Virus record (IMG/VR): IMGVR_UViG_3300030372_002673 | Coordinates: 1-29,030 of that record | DNA: 29,030 bases | Direction: 5' to 3' (one strand) | Origin: a virus | Taxonomy: Duplodnaviria > Caudoviricetes | Shown here: positions 10,466 through 29,030 of the stretch, piece after piece | Numbering within the stretch: position 1 is the stretch's first letter | Layout of the letters: the number at the start of each line of letters is the position of its first letter | Translations under genes and position numbers: made by a program | The notes under the pieces: model-generated | Database searches by the model: none | Told to the model about the DNA's origin: nothing | The model's input: only the letters and a program-made list of their open reading frames with translations

Positions 10466-10574
10466 GAAACATAAAAATTACCCAAGTAGTTTGGAGAATT
10501 TTAAAAAGCTAAAGAATTATATTAAAAAATTAACTAAAACTAACAAAAATGGCGGGACAAAGATTAACCGATAA
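10455..10574 (+). CDS. Small basic protein (39 aa); not in the ORF track
   Basis: MAVKKHKNYPSSLENFKKLKNYIKKLTKTNKNGGTKINR. It bridges the 83-nt gap, overlapping both neighbouring genes. Confidence 0.4.
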   Translation: MAVKKHKNYPSSLENFKKLKNYIKKLTKTNKNGGTKINR

Positions 10575-11094
10575 AACAGCACTTGATGAGCAATTGGGTT
10601 CAGGAGATTTATTTATGGTGGTTGATGTAAACGACACCACAGGTTCAACGGCAGGAACTAGCAAAAAGTTTGACACAAAATACTTAATACAAACAGATAA
10701 AATATCTGTATCAAACGCAGAGTTACACGCTATGAAAGCTACAGGCGGAGCGGGTACGTTTAAAACATTAGTAGGGGCTTTGAGTGGTTATATGATAACA
10801 GTATACAATGTAACGATACTAACTACTTATGCAGCTTCAACGGAAGCCTCTAGTGAAAATTTATTTTTAGGCTATAAATCTGATGACACAACTGCTTATT
10901 GGGGTACTGCTAGGGATTTTATGAATGGAAGCACAAAAAGTATTTCTGCTTGTTTTACAGGTGCATTTGTACCAAATGGAACTTGTACAGAATCACTTTT
11001 AAATAAACCTTTTTTAATGTATTCAAGTGACAATTTTGATGGTGGTTGGACTTGTGATGTTTATGTGACTTATGCTTATACTAAAGTATTATGA
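10549..11094 (+). CDS. Short tail fibre/virion appendage-like protein
   Basis: The N-terminus (RLTDKTAL...GDLFMVVDVNDTTGSTAGTSKK) resembles fibre-anchor motifs, and the C-terminal domain is beta-rich. Confidence 0.45.
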   Translation: MAGQRLTDKTALDEQLGSGDLFMVVDVNDTTGSTAGTSKKFDTKYLIQTDKISVSNAELHAMKATGGAGTFKTLVGALSGYMITVYNVTILTTYAASTEASSENLFLGYKSDDTTAYWGTARDFMNGSTKSISACFTGAFVPNGTCTESLLNKPFLMYSSDNFDGGWTCDVYVTYAYTKVL

Positions 11095-12110
11095 TGAAGT
11101 ATTTATTTTTATTAATTCCGCTTTTGTCTTTTGGGCAAATAGATTTTTTCAAGTATTCTACTATTTATACATCTATGAATATAAATACAAGTATGGTAGA
11201 AAGACAGGACTATATTTCTATTGATAAAGGATATGAAGATATTACACAAATAAATCCATACGATTTTAATTTAAGTATTGGAATCCGTAAAATTGCTAGA
11301 TATGCGTATGAACAAAAAAAACGAACTTGGTTTACAGGAACAGAATACAATGTTTCAGAAAATGTTACTATTTCCAATGCTATGGGTTTTGAGTATCTTG
11401 CTAATTATGCAGTGGTTCGTAGTCGTGGTGACACACTTATTGAGCAGAATTATTGGTTACGATACTTGGGAAAAAGATTTGTAGTAAAAGCACAATATAC
11501 TGATAGACAACGTGTTAATTTAAGATATAATTCATTAGATGCTAGATTAAGACTAACAAAAGGGAGGTTCGATATTACATTAGGGGGTGTATTTAGACAA
11601 CACAATCCTTATGGAATTACACCAATAGATGACCTTTGGATTCCAGGAGAACAATCATTCCGACAATTAGCAGAAGAATTTGGCTATTCAAATGAGTTTG
11701 TAAATGGCAGATGGCATTGGTTTAAAAATGATGAATTACTTGCAACATCTAATGATGAGTTCTACAAACACTATTTTGGTCAAGCTATAGCGGATTATAA
11801 TGAACAAGAATTAGAAAAATTAGGTATGCAAAATGAACTTAGTTTAGTTATTGGTCTAGCATACTATAAATACAATCCAAATTACTGGATACACATTTGG
11901 GCTAATTTAATGCCTTTTCACTATGGTTTGGACGAATACTCTTTCGACTATGAAGAAAGTGGCTTAAAACAGCTAGAAATGGATGCAGGAAGTGTTTTAG
12001 GCGTTAGAATTACAAAGCACTTAGGATTATTTGCAGAAGGAACGTATTTGAAGTATTGGAATAAGCCTGTATATGAATGTAAATTTGGGTTTAATTATTT
12101 AATCTTTTAG
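11091..12110 (+). CDS. Putative outer-membrane beta-barrel protein
   Basis: Sec signal MKYLFLLIPLLSFG|Q, many amphipathic Tyr/Trp/Gly-rich strands, and a C-terminal strand YECKFGFNYLIF ending in Phe (BAM beta-signal-like). Confidence 0.7.
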   Translation: MMKYLFLLIPLLSFGQIDFFKYSTIYTSMNINTSMVERQDYISIDKGYEDITQINPYDFNLSIGIRKIARYAYEQKKRTWFTGTEYNVSENVTISNAMGFEYLANYAVVRSRGDTLIEQNYWLRYLGKRFVVKAQYTDRQRVNLRYNSLDARLRLTKGRFDITLGGVFRQHNPYGITPIDDLWIPGEQSFRQLAEEFGYSNEFVNGRWHWFKNDELLATSNDEFYKHYFGQAIADYNEQELEKLGMQNELSLVIGLAYYKYNPNYWIHIWANLMPFHYGLDEYSFDYEESGLKQLEMDAGSVLGVRITKHLGLFAEGTYLKYWNKPVYECKFGFNYLIF

Positions 12111-12112
12111 TT

Positions 12113-12676
12113 ATGAAAAAATTATTGTTTTTATTTTTAATATGTGGATATGCTTTTAGTCAAACGAATTGTGAATTATGTGTGGAAACAGGTGGCTTCT
12201 ATTGTGGAGATGATGAATCTAATTGGACTCAGTATAGCCCTCTTGGTTGCGTTCCTAATGGTCTTGGCGGCTTACAGTATCTTAATGATGGTTGGGAAGA
12301 TTGTGTTGATGGTTCAGATGAAGCAAATGCCGTTCCAACAACACTAGCTGATTGTGGATTATATGTTGAAAGTTGTGATACAGTATTTGTAGAAATACCT
12401 GTTATTGAAATAATAACACAAACAGATACTATTGTTGAAACAATAATAGAAACAGAATACATCACAGAATATCTAACAGACACTATTGTGGAATTTCAAG
12501 AAATCATTATTACTGAATATGTTGATTGTGCAACAGGACTACCTTGTAATAGTGGTATGCAAGAAGTGTTAGATAAGTCAAAAAATACAGGATTATTATA
12601 TGACCTTAATGGTAGAGTTATAATAAAACCTGAAGGAATTTACATAGAAAATGGTTTAATAAAATATAAATTATAA
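12113..12676 (+). CDS. Secreted protein: LDL-receptor class A-like module, Thr/Ile/Glu stalk and T9SS-type C-terminal sorting domain
   Basis: Signal MKKLLFLFLICGYAFS|Q; FYC...CVP...LNDGWEDCVDGSDE; TDTIVE repeats; C-terminus LLYDLNGRVIIKPEGIYIENGLIKYKL. Confidence 0.7.
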   Translation: MKKLLFLFLICGYAFSQTNCELCVETGGFYCGDDESNWTQYSPLGCVPNGLGGLQYLNDGWEDCVDGSDEANAVPTTLADCGLYVESCDTVFVEIPVIEIITQTDTIVETIIETEYITEYLTDTIVEFQEIIITEYVDCATGLPCNSGMQEVLDKSKNTGLLYDLNGRVIIKPEGIYIENGLIKYKL

Positions 12677-12912
12677 TGGATATATTTAAAGATAACAATG
12701 CTTGGAATGAAAAAGCTATAATAGGATTTGTAGCGTTTTTAATAATGTGTTTAATAATGATTGCTGATTTACTTACAGGGTGGATTGGAAAAGACCTAGT
12801 TATAAATGAATTTGTTTACGACAGTTTTGTTTATGTAGTTTTGGGCTGTTTTGGAATTAGTGGAATAGAAAAGTTTTCAGGTAAAAAATGTGATAACTCT
12901 TGTAACAAATGA
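12676..12912 (+). CDS. Two-TM membrane protein, holin-like
   Basis: 78 aa with two hydrophobic helices (AIIGFVAFLIMCLIMIADLL; FVYVVLGCFGISGI) and a charged C-terminus. Confidence 0.55.
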   Translation: MDIFKDNNAWNEKAIIGFVAFLIMCLIMIADLLTGWIGKDLVINEFVYDSFVYVVLGCFGISGIEKFSGKKCDNSCNK

Positions 12913-13178
12913 AAATAAACGAATCCTCAGAATTTACACTTGATTTAAAAACTATTATAATGATAATTGGCTTTGTAATATCATTGTCTGCTACCTATTT
13001 TACGCTGATGGCAGAAGTAGAAATTGCAAAGACATTACCTGAAATGCCAATTAGTGAGAAAGAATTTGAGCTGAAGGACAAGCTGATTCGTGCTTCTATT
13101 CTTTCAACGCAAGAAGATGTACAAGAAATTAAAGAAGACATGAAGTATTTGAGAGGAAAAATAGATGAAATAAACTAA
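12909..13178 (+). CDS. Single-TM protein with C-terminal coiled coil (holin/antiholin or i-spanin-like)
   Basis: TM segment TIIMIIGFVISLSATYFTL followed by heptads (VQEIKEDMKYLRGKIDEI). Confidence 0.5.
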   Translation: MKINESSEFTLDLKTIIMIIGFVISLSATYFTLMAEVEIAKTLPEMPISEKEFELKDKLIRASILSTQEDVQEIKEDMKYLRGKIDEIN

Positions 13179-13513
13179 TGAATAATTTACCGTATATAAT
13201 AATAGGGCTTTTATTTTTTTGTATTGGTTCTTGTTATGCTCAAGTAAAGGTAGTACATTATAATAGTGAATGGAACTCAGAGAACAATTATAGTATTTCT
13301 GATTTAAAAGATTGCGAAAAAGCTGATGTTGTAATATGTCATAATCCTGAAGAACAAGAAAAGCACAATATATTAGCTGTACCTACTTTAATTGTATTTG
13401 ATAACAATATAGAAATAGCAAGGTATGAAGCAAATATAATGATGGAATTAGATATATCTATTAGTGATTTACAAGATACAATAGACAAGGTTTATTTAGA
13501 AAAATTTGAATGA
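13178..13513 (+). CDS. Secreted thioredoxin-fold protein lacking CxxC
   Basis: Signal ending SCYA|Q. VVHYNSEWNSEN occupies the WCxxC position, and HNILAVPTLIVFDNNIEIARY is the thioredoxin cis-Pro/beta-strand signature. Confidence 0.6.
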   Translation: MNNLPYIIIGLLFFCIGSCYAQVKVVHYNSEWNSENNYSISDLKDCEKADVVICHNPEEQEKHNILAVPTLIVFDNNIEIARYEANIMMELDISISDLQDTIDKVYLEKFE

Positions 13514-14007
13514 GATTAAGCAAAAATTTCACATTACAAGAATTAATTAAAAGTAATACGGCATTAAGACGTGGATTAGATAATGTACCCGACAAGGAAC
13601 AGATTATCAAATTAAGACTTCTAGCCACTCACCTTTTACAGCCACTCAGGAATGCAGTAGGTTCTATTAGGATAACGAGTGGTTATAGAAGTCCTGAACT
13701 CTGTGTAGTCTTGGGTAGCAAAATTACAAGTCAACATACAAAGGCAGAAGCAGTTGACTGTCAGTATGTTAAGCGTGGCAAAATGGATAATCTTAAAATA
13801 TATAAAGCACTTATAGATTTAGATTTAGAATTTGACCAGTGCATATTAGAGTTCGGTGATAGTACCGAATACAATGACCCAATGCACCCTGCATGGATAC
13901 ACATTAGTTGGAAGGTTAGCGAAAATAGACAACAGGTTTTAGTTGCTTACAAAGACGAAAACAACAAAACTAAATATAGACCTATAATTAACTATAAATC
14001 TTTATAA
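13510..14007 (+). CDS. Endolysin, peptidase M15A family (Zn D-Ala-D-Ala peptidase-like)
   Basis: MRLSKNFTLQEL, ITSGYRS, SQHTKAEAVD and WIHIS supply the H/D/H zinc ligands. Confidence 0.9.
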   Translation: MRLSKNFTLQELIKSNTALRRGLDNVPDKEQIIKLRLLATHLLQPLRNAVGSIRITSGYRSPELCVVLGSKITSQHTKAEAVDCQYVKRGKMDNLKIYKALIDLDLEFDQCILEFGDSTEYNDPMHPAWIHISWKVSENRQQVLVAYKDENNKTKYRPIINYKSL

Positions 14008-14381
14008 TGTTAAAAGGAATTTTTAAATCAATTTTAGGAAATGCAGCTGACATCATAGATGAATGTGTTACTACTGAAGAAGAAAAAATGGCTTTAAAAA
14101 TAAAAATGAAGCAATTAATCGCTGATTCAGAGGCTAATGCACAAGAACAAATAACAAGACGTTGGGAAGCAGATGCAAAAGCAGGTTGGTTACCTGCAAA
14201 TATCAGACCACTTACATTAGCATTTCTAATAGTATCAACAGTATTATTAGTGTTTATTGATAGTGGTGCAATTAATTTTAATGTAGAAGAACGGTGGGTT
14301 GCCCTGTTAGAAATATGTTTAATTACTACGATTGGAGCATATTTTGGAAGCAGAGGTTTAGAAAAAATAAAAAAGAAATAG
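14007..14381 (+). CDS. Holin (GTA-type 3TM holin family)
   Basis: EQITRRWEAD...WLPANIRPL followed by two TM segments and IGAYFGSRGLEK; adjacent to the endolysin. Confidence 0.8.
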   Translation: MLKGIFKSILGNAADIIDECVTTEEEKMALKIKMKQLIADSEANAQEQITRRWEADAKAGWLPANIRPLTLAFLIVSTVLLVFIDSGAINFNVEERWVALLEICLITTIGAYFGSRGLEKIKKK

Positions 14382-20145: not shown

Positions 20146-20623
20146 ATTAAAACCTGCATCATATAATCCTAGACAGATTACAAAAAAGCAGTTTGAAGAC
20201 TTAAAAGAGTCTATAAGGAAATTTGATTTGGTAGACCCAATCGTAATTAACAAGGATATGACAGTAATCGGGGGTCATCAACGGTTGAAATGTTGTAAAG
20301 AGTTAAAATATAAAGATGTAGATTGTGTTATATTAGACCTTAATAAAGAACAAGAAAGAGAATTAAATATCAGGCTTAACAAATCAGGTGGGGAATTTGA
20401 TATGGATATTTTAGCAAATGAGTTTAACATAGATGAATTAGTAGATTGGGGGTTTAAGCATGTAGAATTAGGTTTAAATTTAGACAAAATACAGAAAGAC
20501 TTATCAGACCAAATAGAATTGCAATATAAAATTGAAGTAGAGGTAACATCAGAAAAGGAACAAGAAACATTATATAATGAATTAAGTAAAAAAGGATATA
20601 TATGCCGAATTTTAACATTATAA
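20117..20623 (+). CDS. ParB/sulfiredoxin-like N-terminal domain protein
   Basis: LKPASYNPR, LKESIRKF..VDPIVIN, VIGGHQRL, LNIRLN..GEFD. Confidence 0.85.
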   Translation: MKIELIEISKLKPASYNPRQITKKQFEDLKESIRKFDLVDPIVINKDMTVIGGHQRLKCCKELKYKDVDCVILDLNKEQERELNIRLNKSGGEFDMDILANEFNIDELVDWGFKHVELGLNLDKIQKDLSDQIELQYKIEVEVTSEKEQETLYNELSKKGYICRILTL

Positions 20624-21654
20624 AAGAGGTAAAACCTAAAAAAAGTTTTAGAGTAAGTTCTATTATTGGTAAATTTGATTTACAAACTGAACACATAAAA
20701 GAACAATTTGAAGGGGAAATAGATTTAGATGATAATTGGAAAATAGGAATAATTGTTGGTAGTAGTGGTAGTGGTAAAACGACAATAGCTAAAGAGTTAT
20801 TTCCTGATAGTTATGTAACTGATTTTAAATATAATGCTGAAACAATTTTAGACGACATGCCTAAAGATAAAAGTGTAGATGAAATAACAAGAGCATTTAA
20901 TAGTGTTGGCTTTTCTTCACCACCAAGTTGGTTAAAACCATACTCAGTATTATCAAATGGTCAAAAGATGAGGGTAGATTTAGCTAATGGATTATTGCAA
21001 GATAAAGAGTTGATGGTGTTTGATGAATTTACAAGTGTTGTAGACAGAAATGTAGCGCAAATAGGAAGTTATGCAGTACAAAAAGCTATAAGGAAAACTA
21101 AAAGGAAGTTTATTGCTGTTAGCTGTCATTATGATATAGTAGATTGGCTATTGCCTGATTGGATATTTAATACTGATTCTATGACCTTTCAAAGACTTGA
21201 AGGGCAAAAAAAAAATAGACCAAAAATTAAATTTAAAATATACAATACAAGAGATAAGTCAGTGTGGAGAATGTTTGCTAAACACCACTATTTGAGTCAT
21301 AGTCATAATAATGCTGCTTATGTATATGTTGCATTTGTAAATGAACAGTTAGCAGGATTTATAAGTATATTACATCAACCACACCCATCAGTAGATAATA
21401 TAAAAAGAGTACATAGGGTAGTAGTTATGCCTGACTTTCAAGGTATAGGGGTAGGGTTAAGGCTACTTGAGTTTATTGGTAAAAAATATATAAACACAAA
21501 ACATAGATATACTATAGTAACATCTGCTCCAAGCTTAATAAGTTACTTTAAAAGAAGTAAAGATTGGATATGTAGGTCTTATGGTAGAAATATGAAACAT
21601 GCTATGGGAAATAGTCAAACAAGAATAACAACAAGTTGGGAATATAAAATTTAA
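20602..21654 (+). CDS. ABC-type ATPase fused to a GNAT acetyltransferase
   Basis: Walker A GSSGSGKT, signature LSNGQ, Walker B VFDEF and H-loop SCH, followed by HHYL and GNAT motif A RVVVMPDFQGIGVG. Confidence 0.85.
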   Translation: MPNFNIIKEVKPKKSFRVSSIIGKFDLQTEHIKEQFEGEIDLDDNWKIGIIVGSSGSGKTTIAKELFPDSYVTDFKYNAETILDDMPKDKSVDEITRAFNSVGFSSPPSWLKPYSVLSNGQKMRVDLANGLLQDKELMVFDEFTSVVDRNVAQIGSYAVQKAIRKTKRKFIAVSCHYDIVDWLLPDWIFNTDSMTFQRLEGQKKNRPKIKFKIYNTRDKSVWRMFAKHHYLSHSHNNAAYVYVAFVNEQLAGFISILHQPHPSVDNIKRVHRVVVMPDFQGIGVGLRLLEFIGKKYINTKHRYTIVTSAPSLISYFKRSKDWICRSYGRNMKHAMGNSQTRITTSWEYKI

Positions 21655-25269: not shown

Positions 25270-26733
25270 ATGGCTTTAGGAAATATATCATTTGTACAAG
25301 AACCTGTAGCAACATCAGACCAAGTACCTGTAATAACAAATTGGAATCCAATAGTACCTTACACTGTATATCAAGATGATATATCAGGCTTATTTTATTT
25401 TAAATTAATCTTAGAAGTAAGGCTAGATGGTTCAACAGGTACACTATTAGGTAAATTAAAACAAAGAAGAAATGGATATGCACCCGATATTTCAAGCGAT
25501 AAAGCAAGGGCTGTATTTGATATTAGAGATATTGTTAATTCTCAATTACAAGACACAAATGCAAATCAAAACTCTACAACAAATACTATACATAGATTAG
25601 GTGTTGATGAACCAGGCAAACCTTTTAGTATAAATGATAATCAAGTAAAAGGTATATATGTCAAAGCATATCAAGAGTATTCTTCATCTGCTGCAGATGG
25701 CCCTACAGAGGATACATCACCTAATACTGATGATTTTAGAAGATACATTGCAGCTTCACTACCTTTAGAAACAACAAGGGGAACAGATAATTTTCAAGCT
25801 AATAGATTTAATTCATTTAAATTAGATGACAACCAAGCAAGGTTTTTAAGTGACGTAAAACAAAGAACAGGTGATATTGCACCTAAAGAGAATGTTTACA
25901 GAAATTATGTTCAAGAAGATGACTACCATACAATAGGATTTTTAAATGGATATATAACAGACCCCCCAGGCGTATTAGTAGATGAATTTAGTAGTAAAAT
26001 GAGATACGTGTGGATTAGATATTATGATTCTAGTGGAAGCCAAATAGGAACTGAACAAGACCTATCTAATAAAGTTGATGCAGGTGGTTGCAAACCTGCA
26101 GAATCAGACGGAGAATTAACTAAAGATGAACGCAGACTTTTGTATTTTGGTTGTGGTCCTGCTAATTTACAAGCACAAAGTGAAAACACAAATGCAAGAC
26201 CATCTAATTTTAGTGGTTGGGCATATTACAAAATATATGGTCAAGATGCAGCTACAAATGTAATTTCAAATTCTTATTATTTTATTAAGCAAGATGGTAG
26301 CTGTAAAAGTTACAAGGTTAGAAGATTAGCATGGCGTAATAGTTTGGGGTGTTGGGATTATTTTAATTTTCAAATGAAGTCTACACAAACGCTAGAAGTA
26401 ACTAGAGATGAATATCAAACAATGCTTGGTAATTTTAATGATACAATGTATTCTTATGATAATTTTCAAAGAGGAAAACAAGTTAGAAGAACATCTGCAG
26501 TATTAAAAGAAACTATTAATACAGATTGGATTTACGAAGAAGATGCTCAATTATTAGAAAGTTTAATAATGTCAACAAATATTCAAATAGTAGAAAACTC
26601 AGATACTACTTATACTGTGCCCGTATTAATCACAGAAAAAAATATAGTTAGAAAAACACAGGCAAATGATGGGGTTAAAATTCAATATACTTTTAAAATT
26701 GAATATGCTAATCCTTACAACACAAACAGTTAA
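25270..26733 (+). CDS. Tail/baseplate structural protein (487 aa)
   Basis: Beta-rich, with C-terminal LAWRNSLGCWDYFNF...NTDWI...LESLIMS...IQYTF. It is coupled (TAATG) to the large tail protein gene. Confidence 0.6.
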   Translation: MALGNISFVQEPVATSDQVPVITNWNPIVPYTVYQDDISGLFYFKLILEVRLDGSTGTLLGKLKQRRNGYAPDISSDKARAVFDIRDIVNSQLQDTNANQNSTTNTIHRLGVDEPGKPFSINDNQVKGIYVKAYQEYSSSAADGPTEDTSPNTDDFRRYIAASLPLETTRGTDNFQANRFNSFKLDDNQARFLSDVKQRTGDIAPKENVYRNYVQEDDYHTIGFLNGYITDPPGVLVDEFSSKMRYVWIRYYDSSGSQIGTEQDLSNKVDAGGCKPAESDGELTKDERRLLYFGCGPANLQAQSENTNARPSNFSGWAYYKIYGQDAATNVISNSYYFIKQDGSCKSYKVRRLAWRNSLGCWDYFNFQMKSTQTLEVTRDEYQTMLGNFNDTMYSYDNFQRGKQVRRTSAVLKETINTDWIYEEDAQLLESLIMSTNIQIVENSDTTYTVPVLITEKNIVRKTQANDGVKIQYTFKIEYANPYNTNS

Positions 26734-29030
26734 TGAAAGTAAGATTAAAAGCATATAGGGAATCCTTAATAGCTACAGGCGTATTTGCAGCTAGTAGCCA
26801 CTCTACGACATTTAGTCAAGTAACTGTTACAGTAAGTGGTGAAGACGCTACCACTGCACTTGCAGTGGGCAGAGTTTTATATCGTGCAGATGGTAGAAAA
26901 TATGGAAAAATTAGTGCTATAAATAGTTCAACAGAAATTAAATTTTTAATGTTGTATTTTATTCCAATAGTGTCAGGAGAACAATTTTATGTTTTAGACG
27001 AAGGAACATACGAACTAGATTTACAAAAAGAACCTAACATAAGTATTAACTATCAATTTGATGATGTCAAAGACCCTAGCAAAAGCAAGAGTAGTTTTAG
27101 TCAAACATTTAATCTGCCTTTTACTGATAATAACAATAAATTCTTTCAGGATTGGTATAATGTAAATTTAGACAAAATAATTTTTAGTACTAAAGAAGAA
27201 TATGATGCTACTATTTTTGTGGGAACAGTACCTCAATTTGATGGTACTTTACAATTAAGGTCAGTTTATAAAAAAGCACAGTACTATGTTGTAACTGTTT
27301 TTGCTAAAACATCTAGCTTGTTTTCTCTTATTGGTGATGATTCATTAAGAAATGCCTTTTTAAGTAGTGATGGTACAAGTTGGAATACATCATTAAATCA
27401 CACTTTCACCGCTGCACAAATGAGGGCTAGTTGGAGAGGCTCTGACAGTGATTTTGAAAATGCAGATGGTGTATCACTAAAAGACCCTGACCACGATATT
27501 CAAAAAGTAATGTACCCTATTTCGGTCACGAAAGCTACATCACAAGACAGTTTTTATTTCAACAATGATTATTTAAATTTTGATTTTTTAAATAAAGACC
27601 AAGCCTCATTAGATAATAATTTAGCTAAAAAAGTGTCAATAACACAATTCAGACCTGCAATTCAGATTAAGGAAATGATTAAAATCATACTCGGTAGAGT
27701 GGGTTTATCTTATACATCAGAGTTTTTTGATAGTGAGTATTTTAGCAAGATATTTATGACAACAGGCGGTCACTTAGAAAACTCACCTGTGCCTATTATA
27801 GAAGAATCAGCAGTTATATCAGATGGTGGTACTTGTATTGTGGGTTATGCTGTAGATGAATACTGGGGGGATATGGGTAACTCGGATAGCCCATTATCTC
27901 AAACAACAGCAGAAAATTATGATGACCCTGCAGATAATAATTCAATTGGATTTGCTTTAAACCCAACTACAGTTGTTTCTGATACGGGGGAATGTTTTAA
28001 TAACGCTGGTAATTTCTGGACAAAAAAACATCCGACACAAACCACACTAGAAATAACTCATCGCTACGAATTTAGAAACACTAGAATACCTGAAGATGGG
28101 GGTGGTAGCAGTAATTGTGGGTTCACTCTAACAATTCGTTTATATAGAGTAAATGATGACGGTTCATATTATATTACTAACACAGGCCTTGTAATCTTAG
28201 CAACTAAAACTGTGCAGATAGAAGCAGACAATTGTTATAGCACGTGGGAAGATGACGAAATTACACATAATATAGATATATCAGATGTGTATGTAGGCTA
28301 TAGTTTTATTGTTACAGCTAGAATAACCGATTTTTATTTTAATTATCCTACTCAGCCCACAGGAATAACTTTAGGTATGAAGTGTGGTAGTACCTGCTTG
28401 TCTACGAATGATTGTGCTTATTTTTCTTATAATTTTTCAGGTGGTGAGTGTTTGAGCACAGTTGTAAAAATGAATTGGAATGGTTATGACACAAATAATT
28501 ATAATGCGGTTATAGATGTACCTTCTTGCATTGACCCTGAATTAAAACAAAAAGACTTTTTAAAAGACCTCATTCAAAGATTTAATTTAATTATAACTGC
28601 AAATCCTAATAATCCTTCTAATATAATCATAGAACCTTATGACACTTATTTAGCTAGTGGTACAATAAGGCATTGGACTGACAGATTAGATTTATCAAAA
28701 GAAATAATTGTGCAAGACACAAGCTCACTACAAAAAGAACGGATATTTTTTACAGATAAAGAAGATGAAGATTTATTTAATAAAGAAATAAAAGACCATT
28801 ATCCTGATTTAAATGTGTACGGTAATATAGAAGTTACTGAAACTAATAATAGATTTGCTAAAGGAGAATTAAAAAACGAGCCATTTTTCTCACCTTATAT
28901 TAATGGTCAAGTACACAGATTATTCCAAGACCAGCAAGAATATCAAATAGCAGAAAGCCAAGATACTGATTTAAGAAATATGGCTGTACATTATGAAGTA
29001 ACCTATGAAGAAGATGGGAATGATATTGAT
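26733..29030 (+). CDS. N-terminal part of the large tail tip/hub-like protein (1272 aa in total; continues to 1620); not in the ORF track
   Basis: Translated by hand with no stop: MKVRLKAYRE...ELDLQKEPNISINYQFDDVKDPSKSKSSFSQTFNLP...FRPAIQIK...KQKDFLKDLIQRFNL...IIIEPY...WTDRLD. Confidence 0.85.
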   Translation, partial: MKVRLKAYRESLIATGVFAASSHSTTFSQVTVTVSGEDATTALAVGRVLYRADGRKYGKISAINSSTEIKFLMLYFIPIVSGEQFYVLDEGTYELDLQKEPNISINYQFDDVKDPSKSKSSFSQTFNLPFTDNNNKFFQDWYNVNLDKIIFSTKEEYDATIFVGTVPQFDGTLQLRSVYKKAQYYVVTVFAKTSSLFSLIGDDSLRNAFLSSDGTSWNTSLNHTFTAAQMRASWRGSDSDFENADGVSLKDPDHDIQKVMYPISVTKATSQDSFYFNNDYLNFDFLNKDQASLDNNLAKKVSITQFRPAIQIKEMIKIILGRVGLSYTSEFFDSEYFSKIFMTTGGHLENSPVPIIEESAVISDGGTCIVGYAVDEYWGDMGNSDSPLSQTTAENYDDPADNNSIGFALNPTTVVSDTGECFNNAGNFWTKKHPTQTTLEITHRYEFRNTRIPEDGGGSSNCGFTLTIRLYRVNDDGSYYITNTGLVILATKTVQIEADNCYSTWEDDEITHNIDISDVYVGYSFIVTARITDFYFNYPTQPTGITLGMKCGSTCLSTNDCAYFSYNFSGGECLSTVVKMNWNGYDTNNYNAVIDVPSCIDPELKQKDFLKDLIQRFNLIITANPNNPSNIIIEPYDTYLASGTIRHWTDRLDLSKEIIVQDTSSLQKERIFFTDKEDEDLFNKEIKDHYPDLNVYGNIEVTETNNRFAKGELKNEPFFSPYINGQVHRLFQDQQEYQIAESQDTDLRNMAVHYEVTYEEDGNDID
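28932..29030. repeat. Terminal direct repeat, right copy
   Basis: Identical to bases 1-99. Confidence 0.95.

Follow-up and report, generated by a model that had tools for sequence, protein, structure and literature searches.

A two-tier envelope gene block beside the lysis genes of a marine Bacteroidota-type phage, with a possible part in opening the outer membrane

Virus record IMGVR_UViG_3300030372_002673 (29,030 bases; "the window" hereafter means this whole stretch) carries, directly before its endolysin and holin genes, five genes for putative cell envelope proteins: an outer membrane β-barrel (BB), a secreted protein with a type IX secretion system (T9SS)-type tail (the cargo), a small membrane protein (TM78), a coiled-coil protein (CC) and a thioredoxin-fold protein (TRX). 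We found that this block is built in two tiers, a CC-TRX unit and an optional arm of barrel and T9SS-type cargo, and is not one fixed unit. The previously undescribed CC-TRX pair occurs in many unrelated marine phages and, judged from its sequences and gene contexts, probably helps to open the host outer membrane. A description of the module was not found in our literature search.

Gene order and distribution

The window is a complete genome, that of a 29-kb marine Bacteroidota-type siphovirus; it is rated 100% complete, has a 99-base terminal repeat and encodes a terminase, a portal protein, a prohead protease and head proteins. The block follows the head and neck genes. A preliminary description made from the DNA letters had joined seven genes with overlapping or nearly abutting junctions into one cassette, and all seven open reading frames (ORFs) are present as described:

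11091..12110, + strand: BB, barrel (ORF of 339 amino acids)
12113..12676, + strand: cargo with LDLa-like head (187 amino acids)
12676..12912, + strand: TM78 (78 amino acids)
12909..13178, + strand: CC (89 amino acids)
13178..13513, + strand: TRX (111 amino acids)
13510..14007, + strand: Peptidase M15 endolysin (165 amino acids; PF08291, 1.1e-10, over the cut-off)
14007..14381, + strand: holin (124 amino acids; phrog_3427, 6.2e-20, PHROG annotation)

The junctions are overlaps of 1–4 bases, the sole exception being the 2-base gap between BB and cargo. The five genes upstream of the endolysin matched no family over the cut-off in profile searches. As the preliminary description had noted, no integrase family was found among 44 ORFs scanned (a 766-amino-acid ORF at the genome end was left out) and no separate promoter was evident, promoter-like sites occurring at chance level (47 versus 47.4 expected).

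To place the block in other phages, we counted the neighbours of 167 barrel loci chosen by barrel similarity. Counts refer to the 75 loci flanked on either side by 5 kb or more, and the remaining 92 do not enter them; paired figures over 38 and 37 stand for the loci of the first and the second of two branches into which the barrel family falls. Cargo was located within 3 kb of the barrel in 38/38 and 37/37 loci and abutted it in 60 of the 75, and the second branch has its own, unrelated cargo type. Within 5 kb of the barrel we found CC in 35/38 and 35/37 loci, TRX in 35/38 and 36/37, a holin in 27/38 and 14/37, and an endolysin of the four families sought in 35/38 versus 15/37 (50/75 in total). 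TM78 is optional (36/75 within 5 kb), and the endolysin is exchangeable, related loci carrying one of four interchangeable families. CC adjoined TRX in 79/79 and 62/69 loci; in one lineage the two have shifted jointly to the opposite strand, with BB and cargo 6–8 kb away on the other. TRX was present in all 35 barrel-bearing viral records (28–171 kb), only two of which contained a detectable relative of the window's terminase. The co-occurrence in related phages implied by the preliminary description was seen in the neighbourhood counts, and it extends to unrelated phages.

Searches from other anchors gave the reverse view. In a distant CC subfamily, represented by the best 80 of 577 matching stretches, loci contained TRX in 80/80, an M15 endolysin in 62/80 and a holin in 67/80 cases; barrel or cargo appeared in none of the 80, including 32 with at least 5 kb upstream. 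Similarly, the barrel was absent from 23 of 23 whole CC-TRX records and from 14 of 14 that were at least 90% complete, in a search that found both positive controls. With a neighbouring head-neck gene as anchor, 11 of the 50 loci with enough downstream DNA had no barrel (one of them duplicates a holin-anchored contig).

Sister phages with a portal 64–85% identical to the window's lack the whole block and carry before the endolysin one gene for a mostly hydrophobic protein of 57–58 amino acids with a basic C-terminal helix and a net charge of +3 (for example L221:4828-5004 and L285:8199-8372, and 14 other loci). This protein matched no PHROG family and is a holin or disruptin candidate. Some of these sisters keep the same M15 endolysin (62–66%) and holin (57–59%); in others the endolysin is shorter and is accompanied by two more genes for small membrane proteins, and inspection by eye revealed no lipoprotein in their slots. 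The 57-amino-acid gene was found in 16 of 345 sequences, with no overlap with BB, CC, TRX, cargo or TM78, and BB and TRX were absent from 15/15 records that contain it, six of them at least 90% complete. Because a single 57-residue membrane protein takes the place of the whole block in sister phages, the block is exchangeable. Forward and reverse distributions together define three nested states of the slot: the 57-amino-acid gene only, CC-TRX, and CC-TRX with barrel and cargo, the barrel-cargo pair occurring in the viruses studied only as an addition to CC-TRX. The single seven-gene system proposed earlier was not upheld: TM78 and the endolysin vary, CC-TRX is widespread without the arm, and sister phages do without the block altogether.

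The same counts bear on the idea that these are ordinary virion components, for which the position after the head and neck genes would speak. We consider it very improbable, because the products have export leaders, a transmembrane barrel and a T9SS-type tail, and the block is spread over 28–171 kb phages with hardly any shared terminase and is missing from sisters with a closely related portal.

Other genes were seen around the barrel. A staphylococcal-nuclease homologue (L051:11760-12134) lay within 5 kb of it in 11/75 loci, and in L092 a GH16 glycoside hydrolase is located between barrel and cargo.

Properties of the encoded proteins

The products look as if exported to different envelope compartments, as had been suggested. 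Scored by a simple heuristic, not SignalP, a hydrophobic leader was followed by Gln in 82/84 distinct BB relatives (the two exceptions are truncated ORF calls), 79/79 cargo relatives and 77/77 TRX relatives; the Gln had first been noticed in the three window proteins.

BB is a predicted 12-stranded outer membrane β-barrel of an unnamed family. Its AlphaFold2 model (pLDDT 77) comprises 12 long strands, each with one more hydrophobic face, although this asymmetry is weak in strands 4, 9 and 11. A Sec-type leader precedes Gln16 and the C-terminal strand terminates in Phe; the even number of amphipathic strands, the export leader and the aromatic C-terminal strand are as predicted for an outer membrane barrel. 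The lumen is basic and conserved. Loop 172–246, on the inferred outer side, is large and variable, and the long loop 68–98, on the inferred periplasmic side, is the best conserved of the protein. A broken barrel remnant was seen among T9SS cargo genes on contig G063:C25. The barrel might serve as an anion-selective channel or a lipid-modifying enzyme, with the cargo as surface binder, and so aid replication or chemically weaken the outer membrane. Such a device is quite unlikely: the fold matches were tied and generic at 7–13% identity, no catalytic triad is evident, and lysis genes adjoin in 50 of the 75 loci.

The cargo comprises a Sec-type leader, a Cys-rich acidic head, an Asp-Thr-Ile/Val stalk and a short C-terminal tail of about 40 residues. 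Of the LDLa-like head described earlier, the part that stood is an acidic calcium-cage motif, D-x3-D-C-x-D-x2-D-E, predicted to bind calcium, in which D59, D63, C64, D69 and E70 are invariant and D66 is nearly so. A full six-cysteine LDLa module was not recovered (15.4 bits versus the Pfam cut-off of 24.1, profile positions 23–36 only; best family member 4.3e-4), and the head corresponds to the calcium-cage half only. Stalk length varies from 26 to 186 residues among relatives. Counted with the known set of residues allowed at X of the D(S/T)X motif, the stalks held 410 D-S/T-hydrophobic triplets versus 47 ± 6 in shuffles. According to PMC11969387, D(S/T)X is an O-glycosylation motif of Bacteroidota; an excess of such sequons would arise equally from a simple repeat.

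The canonical tail models TIGR04183 and PF18962 (Por_Secre_tail) matched none of 57 cargo tails of the window's family, including the window's own, which aligned to canonical T9SS tails at motif B only. Applying our own pattern for short C-terminal domains (CTDs), derived from the text of PMC11969387, we detected motifs B, D and E at the cargo C-terminus in 73 of 79 relatives under relaxed and 56 of 79 under strict settings, versus 0 of 1,485 control ORFs. The same tail was found on chromosomal proteins with different passengers (634, 378 and 503 amino acids) in four genomes from a single Flavobacteriales family of 16 genomes; these four encode SprA (4/4), PorU (3/4) and PorV (3/4) over the cut-off. 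Three genomes of this family also contain the cargo head, in one of them joined to a canonical-type tail. Barrels of the second branch have another neighbour, a protein mostly of 700–1400 amino acids (72 ORFs in 80 loci), whose 62 distinct tails all matched TIGR04183 at E ≤ 0.001. Short-CTD fit, chromosomal tail sharing and canonical second-branch cargos together favour a T9SS signal in the window's cargo tail, and the T9SS reading of the preliminary description is, at the sequence level, well backed. Since modules are shared with the phages, and the tails in particular, this family of small-genome marine Flavobacteriales is the likely host group of these uncultured phages, the window's included.

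Two side observations concern cargos and hosts. Some large phages encode, alongside a canonical-CTD cargo, a second small protein with a short tail and no LDLa head (L169:6798-7298, L174:10401-10952). Phage-like contigs within Flavobacteriales assemblies (L113 in G193:C32, L348 in G157:C58, L349 in G073:C76) may be host links or binning errors.

TRX belongs to the thioredoxin fold: PF00085 matched 41/55 members, and thioredoxins in the PDB matched down to 3.9e-10. The CxxC active site was found in none of 132 distinct sequences, Trp-Asn occupying its position, while the cis-Pro position is invariant. Across the TRX alignment the leader is invariably followed by Gln, which favours processing by signal peptidase I. 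TRXs with a neighbouring barrel gene mostly have Lys-Phe-x or x-x-Phe at the C-terminus, with Phe within the last two residues (the window's own has a terminal Lys-Phe). This motif was absent from ten of ten barrel-less TRXs inspected, which end in basic or polar extensions, and the difference suggests that the terminal Phe may engage the barrel.

CC has one hydrophobic segment (residues 16–34) after a short conserved N-terminal tail ending in the invariant Lys14, and its C-terminal part is helical or coiled-coil with a proline hinge; its orientation is probably N-in with the C-terminal coiled coil in the periplasm. It matched phrog_10340 (holin/anti-holin) weakly (6.4e-05). TM78, with hydrophobic segments at 15–33 and 46–64, appears to be a two-helix small membrane protein and is predicted to be holin-like from size and position only. 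A leaderless protein of 49–61 amino acids with an aromatic β-type C-terminal motif (L051:13196-13369, L147:4365-4514) lay within 5 kb of the barrel in 29/75 loci and moves with CC-TRX in one lineage; it is absent from the window. In L018, L019 and L021, unrelated small proteins that share a MAFKMK-type leader are interleaved with the module genes.

Elsewhere in the window, the gene just upstream of BB (10549-11094) has conserved first 45 residues and a variable remainder (37–89% identity), a pattern resembling a fibre or receptor-binding module. A metallophosphoesterase gene follows the holin immediately, an ABC-ATPase/GNAT fusion is located at 20602-21654, and a large tail-region ORF spans the terminal repeat (26733-29030 and 49-1620).

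Possible roles of the two tiers

The nested states, and the exchange of the block for one small membrane protein, point to an action of CC-TRX in the lysis step, and the 57-amino-acid gene never shares a locus with the block, as would be expected if both were alternative solutions to that step. We tentatively read CC-TRX as a pair that works like a non-lipoprotein spanin, with the barrel-cargo arm docking on it, a reading to which we give somewhat less than even probability. Among the three roles that the preliminary description had offered (outer membrane disruption, superinfection exclusion or receptor masking, and surface remodelling), outer membrane disruption appears to fit the pair best.

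Under the spanin-like reading, the block would be co-translated late with endolysin and holin. CC would insert into the inner membrane and extend its helical part into the periplasm, signal peptidase I would free TRX into the periplasm, the host β-barrel assembly machinery (BAM) would fold BB, and the cargo would exit via the host T9SS, after which it would be cleaved and either anchored or retained at the cell surface. TRX, whose redox site is lost, could be the adaptor that links CC to the outer membrane, touching the latter via BB where a barrel is present (the Phe-ending TRXs) and otherwise via its basic tail. Once the endolysin has cleared the wall, the bridge would join or break the two membranes, and the acidic calcium-type cargo might modulate this from outside or handle the host surface coat.

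Several observations weigh against such a spanin-like pair. The locus counts overstate independence, because the loci are related and were chosen by barrel similarity, and in the second branch the association with endolysin genes is loose. It is equally conceivable that the 57-amino-acid protein is a second holin and takes the place of TM78 alone. CC reaches into the periplasm with only about 55 residues, and in the window's CC these include no Cys, unlike in most spanins. A lipobox-like motif occurs in 18 of 132 TRXs and the leader region is free of Cys in 61 of 132; the window's TRX is among the 18 (IGSC) and may be lipidated. That the window offers no other full-length lipoprotein candidate speaks, in contrast, for the pair. 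One barrel-family member is encoded alone on a Flavobacteriales chromosome (L112:9379-10593, G063:C35) without CC, TRX or cargo. Finally, the cargo is the barrel's tightest partner, although a spanin needs no T9SS cargo.

The last two points would suit two separate modules that share only late transcription: CC-TRX for lysis, and a barrel that privately anchors the cargo for surface display, which could mean adhesion to particles or neighbours, receptor masking or superinfection exclusion. The barrel keeps its cargo close despite two unrelated cargo types, the large second-branch cargos carry 4–21 Cys/Asp repeats like host surface proteins, the stalks are rich in sequons, and in one lineage BB-cargo is 6–8 kb from CC-TRX on the other strand. 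We nevertheless regard this division, display roles included, as somewhat unlikely: no viral barrel occurs without TRX (35/35) or with the 57-amino-acid alternative (0/16), BB, predicted to have 12 strands, matches neither the PorV nor the PorP family, and the loop that it conserves best probably faces the periplasm.

The arm could also serve timing, along the lines of T4 lysis inhibition by T and RI. CC-TRX would then restrain or trigger the holin while barrel and cargo relay an outside signal (a superinfecting phage, calcium). The accessory status and nesting of the parts, their chain from surface to cytoplasm, the conserved cytoplasmic tail of CC and its weak holin/anti-holin match are in line with this. 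The relay is, however, unlikely, since no sequence link to a known antiholin was seen and holin and endolysin partners vary. Possible, if doubtful, is a single trans-envelope machine common to hundreds of marine Bacteroidota phages, in which the CC coiled coil, a dead TRX adaptor, a new barrel family and a T9SS-exported surface protein form a chain from surface to cytoplasm that executes or times outer membrane rupture.

Comparison with known systems

Known phage products act in the host envelope to alter the surface, block receptors or time lysis, among them the outer membrane proteins Lom and Lc, T5 Llp, and T4 T-RI of lysis inhibition; these are single genes or pairs without a T9SS cargo. 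We found no sequence or fold link of the module to any of these four.

Like PorV and the cargo-binding barrels PorP/SprF, BB is a barrel of about 340 amino acids encoded beside a T9SS cargo. It differs from them in its 12 predicted strands, the absence of a PorV/PorP match (35 diverse members searched in Pfam, E ≤ 0.05), a large outer loop domain and its travelling with CC and TRX; PorV has 14 strands according to PMC11969387. The same text describes short CTDs, known in its account only from Prevotella intermedia (43–55 residues). With these T9SS type A cargos the phage cargo shares a Sec leader, a small residue with Ile/Met where cleavage is predicted and, within its final 40 residues, motifs B (YxxxG), D (GxY-I) and E (K/R); in contrast, it is phage-encoded, and its tail of about 40–42 residues after the predicted cut is slightly shorter. 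The phage tails would thus extend short CTDs beyond P. intermedia and, independently of lysis, phage genes with T9SS tails, canonical or short, would show phage use of the host type IX system.

Outer membrane disruption without spanins is described for the disruptin gp28 of phiKT (bioRxiv 10.1101/515445). The 57-amino-acid gene of the block-less sisters resembles it in size and position. Unlike gp28 as described there, the module is multi-gene, and the 57-amino-acid protein is mostly hydrophobic with its net charge of +3.

The closest functional comparison is with two-component spanins such as lambda Rz/Rz1 and T4 PseT.3/PseT.2 (PMC6139136), which, like CC-TRX, are adjacent gene pairs in a lysis cassette. 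The i-spanin has an N-terminal anchor and two coiled-coil parts with a linker (117 amino acids in T4). CC likewise appears to be an inner membrane subunit with an N-terminal anchor and a hinged, helical periplasmic domain, and its partner TRX is small and exported. The lysis-cassette position was found here and in most CC-anchored loci, and is looser in large phages. An outer membrane lipoprotein subunit with a conserved lipobox was not found: unlike its spanin counterpart, TRX has a thioredoxin fold without a conserved lipobox, there is no conserved cysteine link, and the spanins described include nothing equivalent to the optional barrel and the T9SS cargo. In the same source, 91 of 677 surveyed phage genomes lacked spanins. 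For the way in which such phages breach the outer membrane, CC-TRX is a small two-gene candidate, and the three natural states of one slot serve as controls. The block is thus not a member of the two-component spanins, the PorV/PorP barrels, the active thioredoxins or the proteins with full LDLa modules, but it may work like spanins, and a two-tier module beside the lysis genes would represent a novel type of lysis apparatus in phages.

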